64,000 nucleotides of DNA from an uncultured bacterium. Lineage in GTDB: Bacteria > Babelota > Babeliae > Babelales > JACPOV01. Made by a program: the position numbers and the translations under genes. The first letter of the stretch is position 1. Each line of letters starts with the position of its first letter. Below, in pieces: positions 6,784 to 41,820 of this stretch. Under the pieces are notes generated by a model. That model saw only the letters and a program-made list of their open reading frames with translations, had not been told where the DNA came from and made no database searches. Location of the stretch: positions 102,864 to 166,863 of the forward strand of contig CAVUUR010000009.1 of the NCBI GenBank assembly GCA_963744715.1. The letters run 5' to 3'.

Positions 6784-7323
6784 ATGTCTAAAATTGGAAG
6801 AAAACCAATTGATTTGGGAACTGTTCAGGTTGAACTGAAAAATAATACCGTTTTTTACAAAGGTAAAAAAGGATCAGGGGAACACGTTTTGCCTAGCGCT
6901 TTACGTGCGCACCTTATTGATCATGCGCTGAAATTAGAGTGTTTGGAATCATCTAGAAAAAATAACATGTTATGGGGACTTCATAGAGCTCTCCTTGCTA
7001 ATGAAATTCAAGGAATTGATTCTGGTTTCCAAGAAGTTGTTAATATTAGTGGATTAGGTTTTAAAGCTGTTTTGGCTGGTAAGGTATTGACCTTTTCATT
7101 GGGGTACAGTCATAAAATTCAATTTCCATTGCCAGAAGGCATAGATGTTGAAGTTGATAAAACTGGTCAAAATGTAACTATTAAGGGCAAAAATCGTCAG
7201 TTAGTAGGTTTAACAGCTTCTAAAATTCGAGCATTAAGACCAGTTGAGCCGTATAAGGCTACTGGAATAAAGAGAGCAGGGGAAGTAGTTTTACGCAAAG
7301 CTGGAAAAACAAAAGCTGCTTAA
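6784..7323 (+). CDS. rplF: 50S ribosomal protein L6
   Basis: MSKIGRKPI start, LGYSH and RPVEPYK motifs. Confidence 0.98.
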   Translation: MSKIGRKPIDLGTVQVELKNNTVFYKGKKGSGEHVLPSALRAHLIDHALKLECLESSRKNNMLWGLHRALLANEIQGIDSGFQEVVNISGLGFKAVLAGKVLTFSLGYSHKIQFPLPEGIDVEVDKTGQNVTIKGKNRQLVGLTASKIRALRPVEPYKATGIKRAGEVVLRKAGKTKAA

Positions 7324-7342
7324 TAGGTAATAAGGGTTAATC

Positions 7343-7693
7343 GTGTCTTTACTAAGAAAACTTAAAATAAAAAGAGAAAAACGAGCTCAAAGAGTTCACA
7401 AAGCTATTAAAAAGAGTGAATTATTGAGAGTTTCTGTTTTTAAAAGCCTTAATCACATTTATGGTCAAATAATTGATGACAGCAAGCAAGTTACCTTAGT
7501 AAGTTGCTCGTCATTAGAATTAGATGCTAAGGGTGACAAAAAATCAGTCGCGAAGGCCGTTGGATTAGAGCTTGCGCGCAGAGCAATTGATAAAGGATTG
7601 CAGAAAGTGGCTTTTGATAGGGGTCGTTTTTCGTATCAAGGACGTATTAAAGAGCTTGCTGAAGGACTTCGCGAGGGTGGGCTAACCGTTTAA
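7343..7693 (+). CDS. rplR: 50S ribosomal protein L18
   Basis: SVFKS..HIY.QIIDD and FDRG...Y.GRIK motifs. Confidence 0.97.
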   Translation: MSLLRKLKIKREKRAQRVHKAIKKSELLRVSVFKSLNHIYGQIIDDSKQVTLVSCSSLELDAKGDKKSVAKAVGLELARRAIDKGLQKVAFDRGRFSYQGRIKELAEGLREGGLTV

Positions 7694-7717
7694 CAAGATG
7701 ATAATTTAGGAAAAAAT

Positions 7718-8236
7718 ATGTCTCAGGATCGTAAAGAAAAAAATTTTTTAGACACCGTTGTTAGTGTCAGACGAGTTACAAAAGTTACTAAGGGTGGAAA
7801 AAGATTTTCATTCTCAGCTTTTGTAGTATCAGGTGATCAACAAGGTAACGTTGGTTTTGGAATAGGCAAAAGTAACGAAGTTTCGTCAGCTATTGCTAAA
7901 GGCACTATAAAGGCCCGTAAAGATATGGTTGCAATACCAATTCGTAATAAGACAATTTCTTATAGTATTGTGGGTAAACACGGTGCTAGTAAAGTTCTTA
8001 TTAAATCTGCTTGCAAAGGTACAGGCGTTATTGCCGGCGGTGCGGTTCGTGCTATTATGAAAGCAGCGGGAATAGAAGATGTTTTAGCTAAATCTTTTGG
8101 ATCTTCTAATAAACAAAATGTTGTTAAAGCAGCACTTAATGCTTTAGCTAAATTACGTAGTATTCAACAAATAGGGCATTTGCGAGGAAAAACTATTGAA
8201 GAAATAGTGAAGGGAAGCCATGTCTCAGTTAAGTAG
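7718..8236 (+). CDS. rpsE: 30S ribosomal protein S5
   Basis: [14 protein letters not shown] and GTGVIAGG motifs. Confidence 0.99.
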
Positions 8237-8667
8237 TTTGACAAGTTTAGTCAAAAAAAGAAAAAGAATTGGACGAGGTGGGAGCAGAGGGGGTACTTCT
8301 GGTAGAGGTAATAAAGGACAAAAGGCGCGCACCGGTCATTCAACGATGAGAGCCGCTTTTGAAGGCGGTCAAATGCCATTGGTCCGTCGTCTGCCAAAAC
8401 GCGGTTTTAATAATAAGCCATTTCAAAAAGAATTCGAAATTATAAATATTGATAGACTTGGAACTTCTATTTGAAATGGGTGAACAGTTACTAAAGATGC
8501 ATTAATTGAAAAAGGTGCAATTAGAGGTAAAAAGGGCGCATTATTAAAGGTACTGGGAAATGGTTCTTTAGTAAAAAAATTATCGTTCATGCAGATGCTA
8601 TTAGTAAAAATGCAAAAAAGCAATAGAAAAGTGTGGCGGAGAGGTTCAATTAACCAAGGAGATTTAA
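8220..8667 (+). CDS. rplO: 50S ribosomal protein L15 (apparent frameshifts, probably sequence error)
   Basis: [17 protein letters not shown] and [16 protein letters not shown]; the C-terminal part (LKVLGNG..., GGEVQL) continues in other frames to TAA at 8665-8667. Confidence 0.9.
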
Positions 8668-32877: not shown

Positions 32878-33840
32878 ATGAAAAAAATAATGTTGAGTAT
32901 TGGTATTACGATCATATTTTTTGCAAGTTTCGTTATGGTTAAACGAAGTAAGCAACCAACGAAAACTGCTGCGTATGCCGTCGGTATCGTGCAAACGGCA
33001 TCGCATCCGGCACTTGATGCTGTGCGTGAAGGATTTATTGAAGTATTACAACGTAAAATGGGTGACTCTATTGAGTTTGTGATTCAGAATGCACAAGGCT
33101 CAGTTGCTCAGGCTCATGCAATTGCTCAACAATTTCATAGCAACAAACAATATAATGGATTTTTTGCCATTGCCACACCCGCGGCTCAAGCTATGAGTGC
33201 GGTGCAAAAAGAAAAGCCACTTATTATTGCTGCAGTAACCGATCCGGATGCATTAGGCCTTATGCATCCAACTACTAATGTCTGCGGTGTCAATGATATG
33301 ATTGATGTTAGATCTGAGATAGAAATGCTTACGCAGTTACTACCGAATGTAAAAAAAGTTGGCCTTTTATATACCGCAGGAGAAGCAAATTCTATTGCGG
33401 TAATAAAACAAATGCACCAGGAACTTGAAACGCGAGATTTAGCGTTTATTGATTTTGCAATAGGCAGTGAAGCGGATATTTCTGCCATGGTACATCTAGC
33501 TTGTCGAAAAACTGATGTTATTCTTGCCCCAACCGATAATATGGTTGCTTGCGCAATTGCAATAATTGCAACCATAGCAGGACACTATAAAAAACCTTTA
33601 ATCGTAAGTGATAATATGCTCGTTAAGTTTGGTGCGCTTGCAGCGCGTGGTGTTGATTATAAAGCTCATGGTAAACAAGCTGGAGAGGTGGCGTACAAGA
33701 TTCTTGTTGAAGGAAAAAAGCCATGCGAGTTACCGATTGAACCAACAAAAAGTGAACAAATAGTGGTTAACCAAGCAACGTTAGCAGCACTCGGATTGAC
33801 TATTCCCCATGAATTGCAACCGTATGTTGTCTTAGTCTGA
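32878..33840 (+). CDS. ABC transporter substrate-binding protein (TrpX-like aromatic amino acid family)
   Basis: HPALD..REGF, NAQG, IATPAAQA, AVTDP, E.NS and TDN motifs. Confidence 0.88.
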   Translation: MKKIMLSIGITIIFFASFVMVKRSKQPTKTAAYAVGIVQTASHPALDAVREGFIEVLQRKMGDSIEFVIQNAQGSVAQAHAIAQQFHSNKQYNGFFAIATPAAQAMSAVQKEKPLIIAAVTDPDALGLMHPTTNVCGVNDMIDVRSEIEMLTQLLPNVKKVGLLYTAGEANSIAVIKQMHQELETRDLAFIDFAIGSEADISAMVHLACRKTDVILAPTDNMVACAIAIIATIAGHYKKPLIVSDNMLVKFGALAARGVDYKAHGKQAGEVAYKILVEGKKPCELPIEPTKSEQIVVNQATLAALGLTIPHELQPYVVLV

Positions 33841-33899
33841 TAACGATAAAAAAATGATGAACTTGCTATTTGTATTATTGTATGTTACCATAAAAAAGC

Positions 33900-34043
33900 A
33901 TGAAGATAACGATGAATCGTTCTAACAACTTATTATCGAATACAGAAGTTCTTGGCCTAGATAGGGCCACAGGCAATCATTGTGTCGTTTCTCATACCAA
34001 TTATTATTTTTACTTTACACTATGGGGATCGCAGTATGCCTGA
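33900..34043 (+). CDS. Putative aromatic-rich attenuator leader peptide (47 aa)
   Basis: MKITMNRSNNLLSNTEVLGLDRATGNHCVVSHTNYYFYFTLWGSQYA*. Confidence 0.7.
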   Translation: MKITMNRSNNLLSNTEVLGLDRATGNHCVVSHTNYYFYFTLWGSQYA

Positions 34044-34109
34044 GGTATAAGTTTAAAAAATTTATAAGGCAGTTGTGAAAACCCCGGTTTTAAAAGCCGG
34101 GGTTTTTTT
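34024..34109 (+). terminator. Antiterminator/terminator pair (attenuator 2)
   Basis: Terminator AAAACCCCGGTTT-loop-AAGCCGGGGTTTT+U-run at 34078-34109; competing helix GGGGATCGCAG..TGCCT / AGGCA.TTGTGA..CCCC. Confidence 0.8.
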
Positions 34110-34153
34110 ATTGCAAAAAGTTGAAAGTTTGATGTTCATGAAAGGAAAAATAC

Positions 34154-35128
34154 ATGAAAAAAATTAGAATACAAGAAAGCTTCGTGAAAAAAACGATATT
34201 GATTATCATGGGGATTATCTGTTTGGTTACTATAATTCAAGGTATAAAAAAACCAGTAATAACTGCCGCTTATACCGTTGGTATAATGCAAACGGCATCG
34301 CATCCGGCACTCGATGCGGTGCGTGAAGGATTTATTGAAACATTAAAAAATAAGATGGGCAATACTGTTGAATTTGTGATTCAGAATGCACAAGGTTCAG
34401 TTGCTCAGGCTCACGCAGTTGCCCAACAATTTCATGCCAACAAACAATATAATGGATTTTTTGCCATTGCTACGCCTGCTGCGCAAGCCATGAGTGCCAT
34501 AGAAAAAGAAAAGCCAATTATTATTGCTGCAGTAACCGATCCAAGCATTTTAGGAGCACAGACTAATATTTGCGGTGTTCATGACATGATTGATATGCAT
34601 AAAGAAATTGATATGGTTCATCAATTATTGCCTCATGCACAAACTATTGCATTATTGTATAACAATGGAGAAGCAAACTCTATTGCACAAATTCAAATTA
34701 TTAAGAAAGAACTGAAAGAGCTCAACGTAGATTGTCTTGAGTTAGGAATTGTTCAAGAAAATGATATCGCAACCGTTGTTGCTATGGCTTGTCGAAAAGC
34801 TGATGTGCTACTGTGTCCAACTGATAATATGCTAGCATCGGCTATGGATTTGGTAGCATCAATTGCACATGCCAATAAAAAACCACTCATTGCATGCCAT
34901 AATCAGGCAGTAAATCAAGGTGCGCTTGCAGCGCGTGGTGTTGATTATAAAGCTCATGGTAAACAAGCTGGAGAGGTGGCGTACAAGATTCTTGTTGAAG
35001 GAAAAAAGCCATGCGAGTTACCGATTGAACCGACAAAAAGTGAACAGATAGTGGTTAACCGAGCAACGTTGACAGCACTTGGTTTGACTATTCCTGATGC
35101 GTTGCAGCCATATATTGTTTTAGTTTGA
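34154..35128 (+). CDS. ABC transporter substrate-binding protein, paralog 2
   Basis: Same motifs as 32878-33840; start may be the GTG at 34184. Confidence 0.88.
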   Translation: MKKIRIQESFVKKTILIIMGIICLVTIIQGIKKPVITAAYTVGIMQTASHPALDAVREGFIETLKNKMGNTVEFVIQNAQGSVAQAHAVAQQFHANKQYNGFFAIATPAAQAMSAIEKEKPIIIAAVTDPSILGAQTNICGVHDMIDMHKEIDMVHQLLPHAQTIALLYNNGEANSIAQIQIIKKELKELNVDCLELGIVQENDIATVVAMACRKADVLLCPTDNMLASAMDLVASIAHANKKPLIACHNQAVNQGALAARGVDYKAHGKQAGEVAYKILVEGKKPCELPIEPTKSEQIVVNRATLTALGLTIPDALQPYIVLV

Positions 35129-35140
35129 TAAGGATACATA

Positions 35141-35985
35141 ATGATTGAATTACTCAACATAGCACAAGGTATTATTGAGCGCGGTCTTATTTTTGGTGTT
35201 GTGGTGGCCGCAGTGTACGTAGCTTCACGCCTCGTTAAGTTTGATAATTTAGCCGTTGAGGGTGCATTCGGATTAGGTGGTGCACTAACGGCGCTGTTAA
35301 TAAGTTACGGCGTAAATCCATGGATGGGCCTTATTGGTGCAGCATGCATTGGGGGAATATCAGGAATAATTACCGGATTACTTAATACTTCCTTAAAATT
35401 AAACAATTTGATTAGCGGCATTGTAGTGAGCACCGGTGCATTTTCTGTAACATTGAAAATAGCTGGATCAAATATGTCATTATACGGCAACCAAACTATT
35501 TTTACGCTCATGCCATTGGCGCTAGCGCCGTATCAATCACTACTGTGCTTACGTTTGTTTGTTGCATACTTTTTTATTTCATTAATTGGTTGTTAACAAC
35601 AGAAGTTGGTTTTTTATTGTATGCGGTTGGTGATAATCCGCAGATGCTTACCAATGTTGGTAAAAGTGTGCAGGGATATACGATGTTAGGATTAGCGATC
35701 TCCAATACCTTGGCAGCATTAAGCGGGGCATTGTTTGTGCAATATGCCGGTTATTTTTCAATTTGGGCAAGCGTTGGTGTTTTAATTATTGGCTTGGCCG
35801 GTATGATACTAGCGCAAGCATTAAGTAATAATTTTGGCATTGCTCTTCTAGTTGGTTCAATTGCATACCAAGCAATTATAGCACTCACCTTTGAATTACA
35901 GCTTGACCAAGATTGGAACAAATTAATTACCGCATCACTTATTGTAATACTTATTATGCTTAAACAATGGTTGCCTAAAAAATAG
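35141..35985 (+). CDS. ABC transporter permease (apparent frameshift near 35550)
   Basis: L.VEGAF.LGGA, T..G..L.AVGDN and GLA.SN.L.ALSGAL motifs across two ORFs. Confidence 0.88.
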
Positions 35986-35992
35986 GATTATT

Positions 35993-36748
35993 ATGTTACA
36001 ACTTAAAAATATTAATGTATGGTTTGATAATAATCATATCGTGCGCGATATTTCTTGCGATGTTCAGCCAGGTGATTTTATTGTTATTGTTGGTACCAAT
36101 GGTGCTGGGAAAACGACCCTCTTTGATGCTATTGCAGGAAAAATAAAACCAAACAGTGGCGCTATTGTAGTTGATAATGTTGATATTACCGCATTGCATG
36201 AACAACAACGTGCTCATATTATTACGCGTCTTTTTCAAAATACGAAATTAAATTCGGTGGGGTCATTAACGGTAGCGCAAAATCTTGCTATGGCGAACTA
36301 CAGCCGGCGCCGTGCGCGTCTTGTCGACGGTATGCAGGTAATGCCTCAAGAGTTGGCAGAAAAAATAATAACCGAACTTGGTGGTGATGTATCACTATTA
36401 GAAAAACCAATGAATGCCTTGTCGGGAGGGCAACGACAACTGATTGCATTTGTGATGGCAACACAAGCAATACCGAAAATATTGTTGCTTGATGAGCCTA
36501 CTGCGGCACTTGACCCACAAGCTTCAACAATATTACTGCATCATGCAACAAAATTTATTAAACAACATGCGATAACTACGTTGCTGATAACGCATGATCC
36601 ACATATTGCTTTAAGCATTGGTAATAAAATTTGGGTTTTGGAACATGGTAGGATTACTAAGCAGTATGGTGAACAAGAAAAGAAACATTTGAATCCGGAT
36701 CAGCTGATTGGCCAGATTGATTATGCAAAAATTTCTCAATATTATTAA
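35993..36748 (+). CDS. ABC transporter ATP-binding protein
   Basis: GTNGAGKT, LSGGQRQ, LLLDEPTAALDP and ITH motifs. Confidence 0.96.
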   Translation: MLQLKNINVWFDNNHIVRDISCDVQPGDFIVIVGTNGAGKTTLFDAIAGKIKPNSGAIVVDNVDITALHEQQRAHIITRLFQNTKLNSVGSLTVAQNLAMANYSRRRARLVDGMQVMPQELAEKIITELGGDVSLLEKPMNALSGGQRQLIAFVMATQAIPKILLLDEPTAALDPQASTILLHHATKFIKQHAITTLLITHDPHIALSIGNKIWVLEHGRITKQYGEQEKKHLNPDQLIGQIDYAKISQYY

Positions 36749-36825: not shown

Positions 36826-37188
36826 TTAATGTGTTGTATGAAATAAATTGTAGCTGTATATTGTATCCGGCCATGAATCCTGCCAGGTATATCCTTCTAA
36901 ACATGTCATAAGGCCGTCTTTTATAAATAAAACAAATCCATATCCATAAACGTCATTTATAGTGGCGTCAACATCACCATAACCATATTCAACTGGCTCA
37001 ATTATATGGAGAACATTATTGGGCACAATAAAATCAGTAAAAAACCCGACACCAGTAAAATCTCTGCATTCTATATGTACACGTTTATACTGCTCTCGTA
37101 ATACATTATTAATTGAAGTATCATGTTCCATTATTTTGTGCATAACTGCTTGTTCAAATTTTTCAAACGGTATTATTTTTCTGATCAT
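36826..37188 (-). CDS. Putative immunity protein (orphan)
   Basis: Small acidic ORF (RDFTGVGFFTDF...GFVLFIKDG...LEGYT...WP) at the end of the toxin-downstream array. Confidence 0.55.
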   Translation of the reverse strand: MIRKIIPFEKFEQAVMHKIMEHDTSINNVLREQYKRVHIECRDFTGVGFFTDFIVPNNVLHIIEPVEYGYGDVDATINDVYGYGFVLFIKDGLMTCLEGYTWQDSWPDTIYSYNLFHTTH

Positions 37189-37192
37189 TAAT

Positions 37193-37576
37193 CTAATCTC
37201 TCAGTTTTTTTCCAAAGGTATATGAACCTTCTTTAATTTTGGAAAATATATGTTGTTTTAGTTCTTGATCATCAATTCTATCAAAATCATTGGTAAACCA
37301 ACGTAATGAATCGGGCAAACCTAAATTTTCTTTATACAGCAAGAGAGCCAATGTTGCTTGAATTTTTTCTAGCATAGCAAAGTAATCATCGGCCAATTCA
37401 AGTTTTTCGCAATTTTTTATCATAGAAAAAATATACATAATTTCCTGACCTAGCAATGACGGATTATTAGATAGATCAATTCCTATATTTTCTAATTCTT
37501 TCAATTTTTTATCTAAATCTATTGATGAAATGAGCATATTACGCAAGTAATCCTTATCATTGTTTTTAATGTTCAA
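37193..37576 (-). CDS. Hypothetical protein, putative immunity
   Basis: 127-aa ORF tightly packed in the array. Confidence 0.5.
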   Translation of the reverse strand: MNIKNNDKDYLRNMLISSIDLDKKLKELENIGIDLSNNPSLLGQEIMYIFSMIKNCEKLELADDYFAMLEKIQATLALLLYKENLGLPDSLRWFTNDFDRIDDQELKQHIFSKIKEGSYTFGKKLRD

Positions 37577-37581
37577 CTAAA

Positions 37582-37971
37582 TCATAGTATTTTTTCTGAT
37601 CCAAAAGTTTTTTTATGCCAATATCCTTTTGGTTTACCATAAAACCATTCTTTGTTATTTTGATTTAAGAAGATTGTCAATTGTTTCATTGATATTTTAT
37701 ATCGATAAAATAATGCAATTAATTCTCGTAAATCATCATCTGGTATTATGTTGCTTTTAATATACAAATGTAATTCATCAGAAATTCCACGAAATTCAAT
37801 TATTGATGGTATTCTTTTGATCCATTCAAAAAATAAATCTTCATCAATGCTGGAATAATACCAAACTGATTTTCCTACTAAAGTAATGTGTTCATTATTT
37901 TTTGTATAAAATCTGAGAGGTGTACAGATGAGTGTTATTTGTTTATTGAATTTGTTGATAATCTTCTCCAT
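37582..37971 (-). CDS. Hypothetical protein, putative immunity
   Basis: YS..DE..FFEWI...DDDLRELIALFYRY; array context. Confidence 0.55.
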   Translation of the reverse strand: MEKIINKFNKQITLICTPLRFYTKNNEHITLVGKSVWYYSSIDEDLFFEWIKRIPSIIEFRGISDELHLYIKSNIIPDDDLRELIALFYRYKISMKQLTIFLNQNNKEWFYGKPKGYWHKKTFGSEKIL

Positions 37972-38416
37972 CAGTTTTAATACTTAATGAAGCAAAAAAA
38001 TCATACAAATCGATACTCCACTCATCAACAGGTTGGGTTGCTCTTGCCATAAGATATAAATAACATGTTTGAGCATTATAAGGAGGAAGTTTAGCTCGTT
38101 TTCTTTTAAATGTTTGACCCCCAAGAATATGAATTTGTACGTAGACCATATTACGAACCTTATATAATGCCCATAGACTCATACGTGGATTTGTTTCTAA
38201 AGTCGATATATCAGCAATCAGACAAGAAACATTATGAGTTTTAAGTCTATCAATGCCTTCTTTCCACTGTTGTTTGTATTCTTGAATTGTCCATGAGTCA
38301 AGAGACATAATAAATTTTTCCTTATAATCACCTATGGTAATTTGTCCCCACTCACACAATTCACCAGCAATCTTTTTTGGCTTTTTGCTAACAACTTCTA
38401 TCTTGAATTTCTTCAT
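37943..38416 (-). CDS. CdiI-like immunity protein, paralog of 38889-39386
   Basis: MKKFKIEV..KKP and WT.Q.YKQQWKEG.DRLKTH shared with 38889-39386. Confidence 0.7.
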   Translation of the reverse strand: MKKFKIEVVSKKPKKIAGELCEWGQITIGDYKEKFIMSLDSWTIQEYKQQWKEGIDRLKTHNVSCLIADISTLETNPRMSLWALYKVRNMVYVQIHILGGQTFKRKRAKLPPYNAQTCYLYLMARATQPVDEWSIDLYDFFASLSIKTDGEDYQQIQ

Positions 38417-38447: not shown

Positions 38448-38885
38448 TTATGATGTGCGTATTAATTGCACTTTAGGTTCGCATGTATCAATAATATCTA
38501 CTATCGAATCTGCTGCAACGATAGAAAAATGTATGAATGATAATGAATCGCTAATACCATATGATTCTTCTGATAACCATTGTACATATGATGAATTAGT
38601 TACTTTAAAGAATGTCCAATCTCCATAAAATTTTGAGCCGTAGCGCTCATCAAGTATGTTTATAGTATTTAATCTAAAACTTTCATCAACACTTCGATAA
38701 GAATCTACAGAACCTTCAAAGGTTATTAAAACCTTATTGTTTTCATTATTATAATCAGAGAGCCAGACTTTAAATCCATCAATAGCATCAACAATTGAAT
38801 CAACATAATACTTAGCGGCCAAACCTTGTACTGGTTCCCATTTTTCCCATTGTTCTAGCATCGTTATCATTTCTGTATTATTCAT
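38448..38885 (-). CDS. Hypothetical protein, putative immunity
   Basis: Acidic 145-aa ORF (WEP...YR..DES.R...WTFFKV.NS.Y..W); array context. Confidence 0.55.
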   Translation of the reverse strand: MNNTEMITMLEQWEKWEPVQGLAAKYYVDSIVDAIDGFKVWLSDYNNENNKVLITFEGSVDSYRSVDESFRLNTINILDERYGSKFYGDWTFFKVTNSSYVQWLSEESYGISDSLSFIHFSIVAADSIVDIIDTCEPKVQLIRTS

Positions 38886-38888
38886 TCC

Positions 38889-39386
38889 TTATAAAGCTAA
38901 TCTGGTAATATTGCTATCTACTGATGCAAAAAAATCTTCTGCGGCAATACTCCATTCTACAATTTTATGACCCTCTTCAGTTATTGAATCACCTTTTTCA
39001 TTAGTTACCCGTTGATCAATAAGTTGATAACAGGTTTTAGAATAACAAGGAGATTCCCCAGGTGGTATTGTTTTCAATAATATACAACTGATAAGTTGAT
39101 ACGTTACAAAAATAGTAGTATCAACTTTATATAATTTCCATAATCTTAAGCATGGAAGTCGAAACTTCGTCATCATGATAAAAGTAACGAAACATGAAGA
39201 ATCATGAGTTTTCAGTCTATCAAGACCTTCTTTCCATTGTTGTTTATAATCCTGAAGAGTCCACACATCTAACGGCATATCTAATATTTCTTTAAAAGAA
39301 CCTACAGTTAGTTTTCCTTCGTGCCATAAAATTCCGGAAGCCGTCGTTGGCTTTTTGTTAATAACTTCAATTTTAAATTTTTTCAT
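38889..39386 (-). CDS. Cognate immunity protein (resembles Enterobacter cloacae CdiI family)
   Basis: Starts 1 nt after the toxin stop; G...G.F.E....PL..W...DY..QW pattern recalled from CdiI-ECL-like proteins. Confidence 0.7.
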   Translation of the reverse strand: MKKFKIEVINKKPTTASGILWHEGKLTVGSFKEILDMPLDVWTLQDYKQQWKEGLDRLKTHDSSCFVTFIMMTKFRLPCLRLWKLYKVDTTIFVTYQLISCILLKTIPPGESPCYSKTCYQLIDQRVTNEKGDSITEEGHKIVEWSIAAEDFFASVDSNITRLAL

Positions 39387-39387
39387 A

Positions 39388-40497
39388 TTATTTTCCTATG
39401 GGTTTTCCATGAGCATCTAATGTACGTCTTTGCTTTTTTTTATCAAATTCTTTCCAAATACCCCCATTATGCCCATCTCTATCTGGAGAAATCCAAATAT
39501 TACGCTTTGGGTCTTTAAATACAAGTTTCCCATGATCGTCAAAGGGATGATTTTTGTCTTCTTTATAACCTAAAACTTCTGCTAATCTTCTGGCTTCTCT
39601 ATTCGTTAATCCTCCAGGCTTGTGTTTTGTTTCATCAATTTTTTCTTCATCAGAATCTTTTGTAGGTACTTCATTATTTTTAGGTTTTCCTGGAGCTTTA
39701 TCATCTTCTTTTTCTTTAGGAGGTATTGGCTTTGGTATAGGTTGGGTAGGAATTTGTTCGTTAAACAATGCATGACCAAGTTTATCCGGATATACTGAAA
39801 TACCATAACAAGGCACATCTGCTGGGCCAAAGAACTTTTTTATTCCTATGCCAAAGAGACCACCGAGGATAGCGCCACAACTTAACGTAATGGGTCCCAA
39901 TACACCACCCATACTGCCGCCAGCTGCTGCGCCGGTACCAAAAGCAATTCCTAAACCAATACTTATAGCCGGCAAAACCATATTATGCGTTAAAATTTGG
40001 TTGGTTCCAACAAAAAAAATATGCGTGCCTTTAACATGAATGGCATAGACGGTGCGCGGTTCTTTAAAAAATCTAATCTTAGAAATTCTTTTTACTTCAT
40101 GTTGTTTAGAAAATAAAATATCGCCGATTTTTAATTGGCATGCAGGAATCCATTGCTGAGCATGCACCACATAAAATTCTTGTGTCGCTGTGCAGGTAAT
40201 ATCCTCCCACCATTCATCGTTAAAAGAAATTGCAACATGATAATCGGTTTCACTTTTTCCTGCAGATCGAATAGGGCGTTTAACGAACCCCTGTTTAACA
40301 AAATCAAAACTAGTAATCGATTGTCCATCTTCTACTACATCTTCACATACTAATCGAATTGGATACAGATCTACTGATTGATCTACAATGCTAACGAGGG
40401 TATTGCCATCAAAGCCATGGCCATAACAATGAAACGGTAAAAAAAATTGGGAAATAATCAAAAACAGTGTTGTTGTATAGAGTGAAATACGCTTCAT
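39388..40497 (-). CDS. Polymorphic toxin: signal peptide + Hint domain + Gly-rich hydrophobic segment + Ntox21-like RNase
   Basis: GFDGNTLV...A.QLKIGD.L...VY.I.V.GTH.FFVG...ILTHN (Hint); A..LGY...HG..VF...ISPD.DGHNGG.WK...TLD...IG (Ntox21-like). Confidence 0.8.
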   Translation of the reverse strand: MKRISLYTTTLFLIISQFFLPFHCYGHGFDGNTLVSIVDQSVDLYPIRLVCEDVVEDGQSITSFDFVKQGFVKRPIRSAGKSETDYHVAISFNDEWWEDITCTATQEFYVVHAQQWIPACQLKIGDILFSKQHEVKRISKIRFFKEPRTVYAIHVKGTHIFFVGTNQILTHNMVLPAISIGLGIAFGTGAAAGGSMGGVLGPITLSCGAILGGLFGIGIKKFFGPADVPCYGISVYPDKLGHALFNEQIPTQPIPKPIPPKEKEDDKAPGKPKNNEVPTKDSDEEKIDETKHKPGGLTNREARRLAEVLGYKEDKNHPFDDHGKLVFKDPKRNIWISPDRDGHNGGIWKEFDKKKQRRTLDAHGKPIGK

Positions 40498-40688
40498 ACT
40501 TCTCCGTTACACAAAAATATTTTTAAGGATCATTACATAACATGACGATATCAAAAAAGTTTATTTGCGCAATCAGTTTTTTTAATATTTCTAGCAGTTT
40601 CTAAAACTAAATAATTTATTTCATATTGAAACTTTTGCCAATAAGGTATGCTAAGAAATAAGATTGGTTCTTAGTGGAGTTGGGTTAT

Positions 40689-41621
40689 ATGAAACAAGAT
40701 ATAACAGTATTGATAGGATTGTTGCTTGTGGAGATTCAAGTACCCATTTTTTCTATGCAACTGCCGAGGTTCGACAATGATTTAAAAGTTCGAAAATATG
40801 GTATGCAAAAAAAACTGTTAGCAGATGACGAAATTGTTATGTTAGTGCAATACGTTGCCTTGCAAGCAGGGAAATCTAATGCCACTCACATAGTAATCGA
40901 AAATAATAATAATTCTTTAGCGGATCTCAAAAGCAGGATGTGCTATAAAGAAGATGTTATTGTTATTCCTGTTCCCATGGAACGTGCATTACGCAAGAGC
41001 ATGAGATCAAAGCGTAAAAAAGAACAACGATACAAATATCGTTTTTTAGGCTCATTATTGCATGAATTTGGACACATTGAATACGAAAAACAATCTTTTC
41101 AAGAATTACACCATGCGCCATATAATCCTGTGTATTGGCATAATTCCGAAATTATTTTAAAACATATGGGCGGTAAAAATATTTCTAGTTTATTAGATCA
41201 ATTAGCTGAACGATTACATAATCCAACGAAAATATTAGCCCCGAGATTTATAGAAGTATTAGTTTTCATAAGGAAAAATAAAACTTCTTTGGATGAAAAA
41301 TATGCCAGCCGCATCTTGGAAACTCAGGCTGATAATTTTGCTTGTTTGTGTTTAGCGACCATGAAGGATCAAGAACAAGCTATAGAAATTGCACAAACAA
41401 GGGCTGATTATTATCGAAAATTACATACTATCTATGAACAATGGTATCCTCATTTAAATGAGGGTAAGGGGACGCATCCAACTCCTCAATCACGCTCCGA
41501 TCAATTCAAAAAAAATGCATGGGCTTTAAGGAGAAATAGTGTCATGAAAGGCATTGAGCGAGCTAAAATCTGGAATGGGGACTTTGGAAGCATATTTAAC
41601 GTAAGCAATAAGAAATTTTAA
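40689..41621 (+). CDS. Secreted zinc metallopeptidase, M48-like
   Basis: LLHEFGH (HExxH), ETQADNFA (ExxAD) and THP....R motifs. Confidence 0.7.
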   Translation: MKQDITVLIGLLLVEIQVPIFSMQLPRFDNDLKVRKYGMQKKLLADDEIVMLVQYVALQAGKSNATHIVIENNNNSLADLKSRMCYKEDVIVIPVPMERALRKSMRSKRKKEQRYKYRFLGSLLHEFGHIEYEKQSFQELHHAPYNPVYWHNSEIILKHMGGKNISSLLDQLAERLHNPTKILAPRFIEVLVFIRKNKTSLDEKYASRILETQADNFACLCLATMKDQEQAIEIAQTRADYYRKLHTIYEQWYPHLNEGKGTHPTPQSRSDQFKKNAWALRRNSVMKGIERAKIWNGDFGSIFNVSNKKF

Positions 41622-41744: not shown

Positions 41745-41820
41745 GGGCCCATAGCTCAGCGGTGAGAGCAATCGGCTCATAACCGAGAGGTCCCAGGTTC
41801 GAATCCTGGTGGGCCCACCA
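41745..41820 (+). tRNA. tRNA with CAT anticodon, probably tRNA-Ile2 (lysidine)
   Basis: GGGCCCA/TGGGCCC acceptor stem, CTCATAA loop, TTCGAA T-loop, CCA end; anticodon arm is Ile2-like. Confidence 0.9.

Follow-up and report, generated by a model that had tools for sequence, protein, structure and literature searches.

A predicted Hint-led, stalkless toxin with an Ntox21 tip and an immunity gene array in a likely member of the Dependentiae

Toxins that combine Sec export with HINT, toxins without a stalk and polyimmunity loci have already been catalogued (Zhang 2012, PMC3482391). The Sec/T2SS-exported, HINT-processed and unstalked polymorphic toxins of Zhang et al. (PMC3482391, PMC3113570) carry a signal peptide, HINT and a variable nuclease tip, their immunity genes are adjacent, and tandem immunity arrays occur. 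Ntox21 is listed with HINT in these papers, and according to Zhang 2011 (PMC3113570) HINT is always flanked by a pre-toxin domain before it and the nuclease behind it. The architecture nearest to the one described here is that of class 1 MafB from Neisseria (PMC4287609), which has a Sec signal peptide, an optional A-type BIL domain, a variable tip and a cognate immunity gene, and has no filamentous stalk; DUF1020 precedes the BIL domain and a mafA partner is often present. CdiA of E. cloacae is a large two-partner-secreted filament whose C-terminal toxin (CdiA-CT, paired with CdiI in structure 4NTQ) cuts 16S rRNA at A1493/G1494 (PMC9304027). A-type BIL domains cleave at His-Asn (review PMC7765530). 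The glycine-zipper bacteriocins CdzC/D, which use type I secretion (PMC5380434), and the microcins are hydrophobic, Gly/Ala-rich peptides with GxxxG motifs that are freed from a leader.

The locus described here lies in the window, i.e. the whole stretch of 64,000 nucleotides that was analysed. The genome (1.26 Mb in 12 contigs, G+C 0.357, 86% complete) is likely to belong to the Dependentiae, known as reduced protist parasites. Its size, two secretin genes and ATP/ADP translocases agree with what has been published for that phylum (PMC4776705), and close homologues are named Candidatus Dependentiae or Babeliales. Type II secretion and outer-membrane vesicles have been reported for this phylum (PMC6561590, PMC4378268, PMC4776705); in these genome papers, a term search did not retrieve the word intein and retrieved toxins only as two toxin-antitoxin pairs. 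One gene of the window codes for a protein of 369 residues with the layout that had been claimed from the letters alone:

39388..40497, minus strand: toxin gene, 369 aa, with leader, Hint domain, hydrophobic hairpin (predicted), linker and Ntox21 tip
40502..40505, minus strand: RBS-like GGAG that precedes the toxin ATG, seen in the sequence
40420..40497, minus strand: predicted Sec signal peptide, aa 1-26, from hydropathy and a modelled helix
39982..40416, minus strand: Hint/BIL-type domain, aa 28-172, with Gly1, Gln106 at the site of the block-B His, His159 and His171-Asn172
39841..39981, minus strand: Gly-rich hydrophobic two-part segment, aa 173-219, a predicted helical hairpin with low model confidence
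39616..39804, minus strand: Pro/Lys/Glu/Asp-rich linker, aa 232-294, from the sequence, with pLDDT below 50
39391..39615, minus strand: Ntox21 tip, aa 295-369, from Pfam and from the alignment to 4NTQ_A
39805..40581, minus strand: constant block with 94% DNA identity over 778 nt to a paralog on contig C2, ending after codon 231

As an in-frame stop lies only three codons upstream of the ATG (stop-to-stop frame), the ATG is preceded by GGAG, and the gene directly upstream is divergent, the toxin ORF is whole. That it might be a fragment of a longer RHS/CdiA gene, a check proposed together with the original prediction, was ruled out by the upstream stop, the divergent neighbour and a genome in which no RHS repeat was found (control search positive in 3 of 14). 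The toxin is also free of RHS and FHA domains according to Pfam, so the stalk is absent as had been claimed. A search of the genome for a CdiB-type protein gave no match, its control being blank as well, and among 675 candidates there was no longer relative of 647-2000 aa, a count of little weight since family loci have frames of up to 1108 aa. The leader was called heuristically from its MKR start, a 9-residue hydropathy of 2.3 and a helix at residues 2-19 of the AlphaFold model. It is likely to be cleaved after C24-Y25-G26, a position that was placed by the -3/-1 rule. The model was built from a 12-sequence alignment; pLDDT is about 68-91 in the Hint region, mostly 73-88 in the tip with one block at 62, and below 50 for aa 175-294.

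The G+C content of the toxin gene (0.37) is close to that of the genome, and the array downstream of it is lower at 0.25-0.33. A promoter scan remained at chance level (20 vs 23), and terminator-like sites numbered 3 vs 1.7; neither result was drawn upon. The divergent neighbour (40674-41621, plus strand) codes for 315 aa, contains HExxH and resembles Peptidase_M48 weakly, at an E of 0.017 that does not reach the cut-off; it is followed by tRNA-Met at 41745-41820. On the other side, an ABC transporter cluster at 32878-36748 (plus strand) includes two substrate-binding-like genes; labels beyond the ATPase are a reading of the sequence. The permease-like part of this cluster consists of two overlapping ORFs (35141-35596 and 35545-35985), possibly due to a frameshift.

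The toxin belongs to a family that is widespread in the phylum. Pfam PT-HINT matches occur in 89 of 261 genomes, and a family profile of our own has matches (E 1e-8) in 109 of the 261 and in 83 of the 189 high-quality genomes, with up to 9 matches per genome. When aa 1-233 were used as a query against 1.84 billion representatives, 991 matches were obtained at E 0.001; the ESM Atlas returned only generic PT-HINT clusters under 0.9, which are leads at most. For closer study, 112 loci were sampled around the stronger Pfam PT-HINT matches, so that weak family members are under-sampled. They contain 123 distinct Hint matches, of which the 116 that aligned at both ends were used for residue counts. 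A start codon 14-40 aa before Hint, together with a hydrophobic core, is found in 97 of the 116 members by a heuristic; the remaining 19 mostly have a short spacer after the leader, and three of them have an open frame of 110-220 aa upstream. Several long members (L018, L037, L081, P0157/P0160) have an open frame of ~880-1100 aa in which hairpin and tip are several hundred residues apart; for one relative, the source gives the name EndoU-domain protein.

A mobile or viral origin was also considered. No relative was present among 28 pattern matches from viral contigs, a phage scan retrieved no family relative, and plasmids gave six weak matches to Hint alone, at 26-33% identity and 35-41% query coverage. 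The neighbouring housekeeping genes, searched against plasmid DNA, had no match. Based on the lack of viral or phage relatives, the weakness of the plasmid matches and a gene G+C of 0.37 that is near the value of the genome, this origin was rejected.

The Hint domain was recognized both by profile and by fold. Residues 81-171 match PT-HINT with 36.6 bits (cut-off 27.7), which is the profile match that had been called for, and the best PDB fold match of the model is the BIL2 Hint structure 6Y75 (Foldseek, E 2e-13, TM by target 0.84). In a profile of 95 family sequences, G28 falls on the Ala that C1A BIL2 structures have at position 1, and Q106 on the His that 2LWY and BIL2 have in block B. Cys1 is thus truly lost and TxxH truly changed to TATQ, as the original prediction had stated, and its intact terminal His-Asn is likewise present (H171 and N172), together with block-F H159.

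These features extend to the family, even though the mean column identity of the 116 Hint sequences is only ~22%. Position 1 is Gly in 110 domains, Ala in 5, Ser in 1 and never Cys; the site of the block-B His is occupied by Gln in 99 and by His in 12. The block-F His is kept in 101 of 116, and the terminal His and the terminal Asn in 114 each. The signature of a cleavage-only Hint, which had been proposed for a single protein, is therefore conserved family-wide. A set of 146 full Hint domains from 159 of the proteins matched with aa 1-233 appears even more uniform (Gly1 and Asn in 146, Gln at the block-B site in 145, Hint starting within 40 aa in 141), but this uniformity is overstated as these proteins are the closest kin of the query. 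Among 114 residues following the Hint Asn, there are 27 Met, 26 Phe, 19 Ile, 9 Val, 5 Ser, 3 Thr and no Cys. With Met in only 27 of 114, the Met that follows Asn172 is incidental, and the meaning that had been attached to it falls away. At position F4, Asp occurs in 23 and Cys in 4 of the 116 domains; the window toxin has Ala152. Asp at F4 often assists Asn cyclisation.

Splicing inteins have a +1 nucleophile in all of classes 1-3, Cys1 or Ser1 in class 1, and Cys at F4 in class 3 (PMC7765530). The window toxin has Met173 at +1 and Ala152 at F4 and has neither Cys1 nor Ser1; the family counts at +1 (no Cys, 5 Ser and 3 Thr among 114) and at F4 (4 Cys among 116) ruled out a splicing intein. The family shares with the A-type BIL domains 2LWY and Tetrahymena BIL2 the fold, the block-F His, the terminal His-Asn and the lack of a dependable +1 nucleophile. 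It differs from them in the N-terminal part of the active site, as BIL2 has a native Cys1 and both keep the block-B His, which the family replaces by Gly1 and, in most members, Gln. An active site that selectively keeps its C-terminal half would suit a domain that only cleaves. As conservation is confined to the C-terminal catalytic residues and A-type BIL domains cut at His-Asn, we infer cleavage behind Asn172 with neither splicing nor an N-terminal cut.

Directly behind the Hint Asn, the window toxin has a hydrophobic segment (aa 173-219), which is a candidate membrane-entry module. The glycine zipper that had been described is present, with GxxxG motifs starting at residues 183, 189, 193, 194, 197, 208 and 212; it is typical of this subfamily only, and what the family shares is a hydrophobic stretch of ~40 aa. 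Such a segment follows the Asn in 106 of 116 members, whereas the final 60 residues contain one in only 2 of 97. Its median length is ~40 aa, with two separate hydrophobic halves in 70 of 96 members and an acidic residue within it in 80 of 96. A 19-residue hydropathy of at least 1.6 is reached in 82 of 116, and a mildly basic stretch of 12 residues (mean +0.95 vs +0.11) lies behind the hairpin.

Six members have no tip (L014:1267-1953, the second copy at L063, L098, L107:3653-4375, L005 and L006). They consist of leader, Hint and His-Asn, followed only by a Gly/Ala-rich hydrophobic peptide of 72-111 aa, which ends in GVATGPV in four of them and has a microcin-like make-up. It is in make-up that they resemble CdzC/D and microcins. 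At L014, an immunity-like gene is not evident directly behind the tip-less member.

The tip of the window toxin matches Ntox21 above the cut-off (aa 306-355, 39.6 bits vs 25), again a match that had been called for, and this match covers only positions 3-50 of the 71 in the Pfam model. The tip is homologous to E. cloacae CdiA-CT (4NTQ_A, E 2e-4), and its residues D339, D341, H343, K349 and R357 align with D203, D205, H207, K214 and R222 of that chain. Of these, D203, H207 and K214 are presumably catalytic. The [DS]xDxxxH and K motif of Ntox21 is present as S337-P-D339-R-D-G-H343 and K349. The RxG[ST] motif reads RRT in this tip, which is one residue shorter than in homologues and has no Gly, yet Arg357 within RRT still aligns with R222. 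The motifs were taken from Zhang 2012 (PMC3482391).

The toxin gene is followed by a row of six small genes in the same orientation, spaced by 1, 3, 31, -29, 5 and 4 nt, which the original prediction had missed:

38889..39386, minus strand: W1, predicted cognate immunity gene with CdiI_N, a single nt separating its ATG from the stop of the toxin gene
38448..38885, minus strand: W2, probable orphan for immunity, with 28-45% identity to genes behind 6 family toxins with tips of family 5
37943..38416, minus strand: W3, likewise with CdiI_N, sharing 42% identity with W1
37582..37971, minus strand: W4, probable orphan for immunity, with 46-70% identity to genes behind 13 family toxins with tips of the Ntox37 family
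37193..37576, minus strand: W5, array gene of 127 aa, the last 71 nt of which recur at the locus of the C2 paralog
36826..37188, minus strand: W6, predicted spare immunity gene to the tip of the C2 paralog, 79% identical to the gene directly behind that paralog

W1 matches 4NTQ_B (E 6e-6), the partner chain of the very structure that is matched by the tip. Both chains of the CdiA-CT/CdiI pair thus have their homologues at this locus, with aligned motif residues, although the window toxin has no TPS or FHA domain and CdiA is a filament. From these matches, toxin and W1 are almost certainly a toxin-immunity pair. Five of the six array genes, all but W5, could be assigned by homology; NCBIfam has no name for any of the six. 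The genes are in tandem, on the same strand, closely spaced and not interrupted by toxin cassettes, as in a polyimmunity locus (Zhang 2012); published polyimmunity loci mostly stand alone (PMC3482391), whereas this array follows a toxin gene. Neither family-5 tips nor Ntox37-family tips were found in this genome, but as it is 86% complete they may be unassembled. The predicted orphan immunity genes argue for bacterial rather than organelle targets. They are not proof of kin rivals, since Ntox21 and Ntox37 tips occur in other phyla, too.

The genome has four copies that match the family profile, including that of the window. The C2 paralog (C2:54851-56050) shares with it a block of 778 nt at 94% DNA identity that begins 84 nt before the ATG and ends at codon 231; thereafter the two are unrelated, and the C2 copy is followed by a different downstream gene. 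The break in identity at codon 231 is a tip-swap junction. The third copy (C9:1728-2771) has a colicin-E3-like tip, and an orphan colicin-E3-like tip fragment lies behind it (G000:C9:1061-1231). The fourth (L117:1167-3100, on G000:C6) is split over two frames and has its own tip; two immunity-like genes and then a further decayed Hint fragment are found behind it. Two fragments that resemble the alternative immunity family of Ntox21 occur at G000:C11:975-1380. A second type of carrier that has tips in common with the Hint family was seen at L116:1488-3431 (G000:C7), a protein of 647 aa with a leader, a long non-Hint N-terminal region and a family-2 tip, and with three same-strand genes behind it.

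Exchange of tips was analysed for those complete members, 97 in number, in which 110 aa or more follow the Asn; their tips fall into 24 families. This and the C2 paralog, which diverges after codon 231, bear out the expectation of a constant N-terminus with variable tips. Toxin Pfams match 30 of 112 post-Hint parts (82 are without a match), namely Ntox37 in 14 (2 under the cut-off), Ntox21 in 8, Cytotoxic in 5, and Ntox33, Ntox35 and Ntox17 in one each, Ntox17 being under the cut-off. No TPS-FHA or RHS stalk was found in the 112 post-Hint parts.

A close same-strand ORF is located downstream of 96 of the 105 toxins with room for one. The N-terminal hydrophobic core is absent from 87 of these 96 genes, as expected for cytoplasmic antidotes. 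Apart from the window, 89 of 95 such ORFs were scanned with Pfam, five short ones and one Hint gene being excluded and one ORF being replaced by the next. Matches were obtained to DUF6980 (16), CdiI_N (6), CdiI_ImmP (3), TPR (3), and DUF4279, ankyrin and HD (1 each). A CdiI_N-like family stands behind 7 of 9 Ntox21 tips and another family behind the other 2. The latter, a 172-aa gene unrelated to CdiI_N (L044:1827-2342 and L049:1675-2190), is a candidate for a second immunity family for Ntox21. DUF6980 (PF22400) immediately follows a tip of family 2 or family 4 at 16 loci (among them L024, L026, L041, L099, L100 and L104) and is a candidate immunity family for colicin-E3-like RNases. Some immunity proteins have two or three CdiI_N or CdiI_ImmP domains in tandem (L010:2386-3336, L038:3153-4016 and 7051-8373, L059:1639-2256), and one CdiI_N is fused to an Ntox21 fragment.

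Among 89 pairs of tip and downstream gene, members of the same downstream family have the same tip family in 338 of 388 comparisons; in 1000 shuffles of the pairing the mean was 43.8 and the maximum 75, relatives not being independent. The tips are scattered over the N-terminal tree, with 37 changes for 6 tip families on 72 rows (FastTree; a raw, unshuffled count), so that kinship alone does not explain the pairing. The nearest N-terminal neighbour has the same tip in 36 of 96 cases, and pairs with 93-99% N-terminal identity bear different tips. With a constant N-terminus, swappable tips, and tip families that track the downstream gene, the family represents a polymorphic toxin system.

Given these parts and their order, the tip swap, the pairing with immunity genes, the spare immunity genes and the spread through the phylum, we consider it reasonably probable that the window protein is a stalkless antibacterial polymorphic toxin that combines export, self-cleavage, entry by the hairpin and cleavage of 16S rRNA. 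Export by Sec is very probable; passage of the outer membrane would then follow by a type II secretin, two genes for which are found in this genome, or by vesicles. Asn cyclisation at His171-Asn172, with neither splicing nor N-terminal cleavage, is highly likely, although the frequent loss of the F4 Asp, kept in only 23 of 116 domains, speaks against it. It is somewhat more likely than not that Hint masks the hairpin until cleavage and that the hairpin is the entry module. Against the reading as a whole stand the shortened RxG[ST] motif and the partial Ntox21 match, the low pLDDT of the hairpin, the 82 post-Hint parts with no toxin Pfam, and a locus that has neither a receptor-binding domain nor a gene for a dedicated transporter. 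The freed hairpin would carry the tip into a rival bacterium, replacing the entry domain of CdiA-CT (PMC9086364). There, the tip would likely cleave 16S rRNA at A1493/G1494 like E. cloacae CdiA-CT, and there is a good chance that it is bacteria that are hit, above all other Dependentiae that share the host cell or food vacuole.

Alternative readings differ in where the tip acts and in what Hint does. The tip might instead cut the bacteria-like mitochondrial rRNA or the cytosolic rRNA of the protist, with W1 serving only to avert self-poisoning; the decoding centre is conserved in mitochondria. Such a host-directed effector would suit C. destructans, which replicates wrapped in a host mitochondrion and has signal peptides on 44% of its proteins (PMC6561590), and ATP/ADP translocase genes are found in the genome studied here. 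Yet a parasite that takes ATP would gain little by stopping mitochondrial translation, the identified tips are antibacterial families, and fast tip swapping and orphan immunity pay only against toxins from other bacteria. We regard host direction as improbable. The original prediction had named rival bacteria or perhaps host organelles as targets: the former are favoured by the cognate and orphan immunity genes, and the latter are left as a minor rival.

It is similarly unlikely, if by a trace less so, that the hydrophobic segment stops in the inner membrane of the producer, with Hint outside and the tip inside and held by W1. The protein would then be a suicide or addiction switch, or would reach rivals only by membrane or vesicle fusion. 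A locus with no dedicated transporter gene or receptor-binding domain, the 19-residue hydropathy in 82 of 116 members and the mildly basic residues behind the segment would fit such an anchor, but the two hydrophobic halves (70 of 96) and the acidic residue (80 of 96) fit a hairpin, with which the tip would stay on the side to which the protein is exported. In addition, the tip-less members bear the hydrophobic peptide alone, and orphan immunity arrays imply incoming toxins. Hint could also be catalytically dead and serve as a folded chaperone or as a receptor-binding head, the toxin being delivered whole or cut by another protease. Cys1, the block-B His and mostly the F4 Asp are lost, and the toxin has no other candidate receptor-binding domain; against this, the residues for C-terminal cleavage are kept (block-F His in 101, penultimate His in 114 and Asn in 114 of 116), and a dead Hint seems the least probable of these alternatives.

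The antibacterial, self-cleaving toxin that we favour had been put forward as a possibly undescribed delivery class, which was overstated given that Sec export with HINT, unstalked toxins and MafB are known. The order of the parts and the phylum look new. In contrast to the systems of Zhang et al., the mature protein here begins with Hint, the hairpin lies between Hint and tip, and the N-terminal catalytic Hint residues are lost across the family. In contrast to MafB, neither DUF1020 nor mafA was detected here by Pfam, and with Hint starting at aa 28 there is no room for DUF1020. What looks new is thus Hint as a leader, the family-wide cleavage-only signature, the hairpin behind Hint, and the phylum. 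No description of this family was found in full-text searches that cover few subscription journals, and the supplement of Zhang 2012 may list similar architectures.

The family offers a natural cleavage-only Hint domain, many tips that are unnamed in Pfam, and a candidate immunity role for DUF6980; as the proteins are small and modular, cleavage, entry and toxicity are testable in E. coli. More tentatively, and with slightly less than even confidence, we suggest a phylum-wide delivery class in which a cleavage-only Hint (Gly1, Gln at the block-B site) is a self-removing leader: it would mask a hairpin during Sec export, fall off, and leave the hairpin free to enter membranes of rival Dependentiae in a co-infected protist. 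If this holds, the hairpin would carry in an RNase tip, or tip-less members would act alone as microcin-like peptides, and these obligate intracellular parasites would have in this class their chief means of fighting their kin. That 109 of 261 genomes have a toxin-immunity arsenal, with up to 9 matches in a genome, implies that strains of Dependentiae meet and compete, most likely inside their hosts, and such competition bears on superinfection exclusion.
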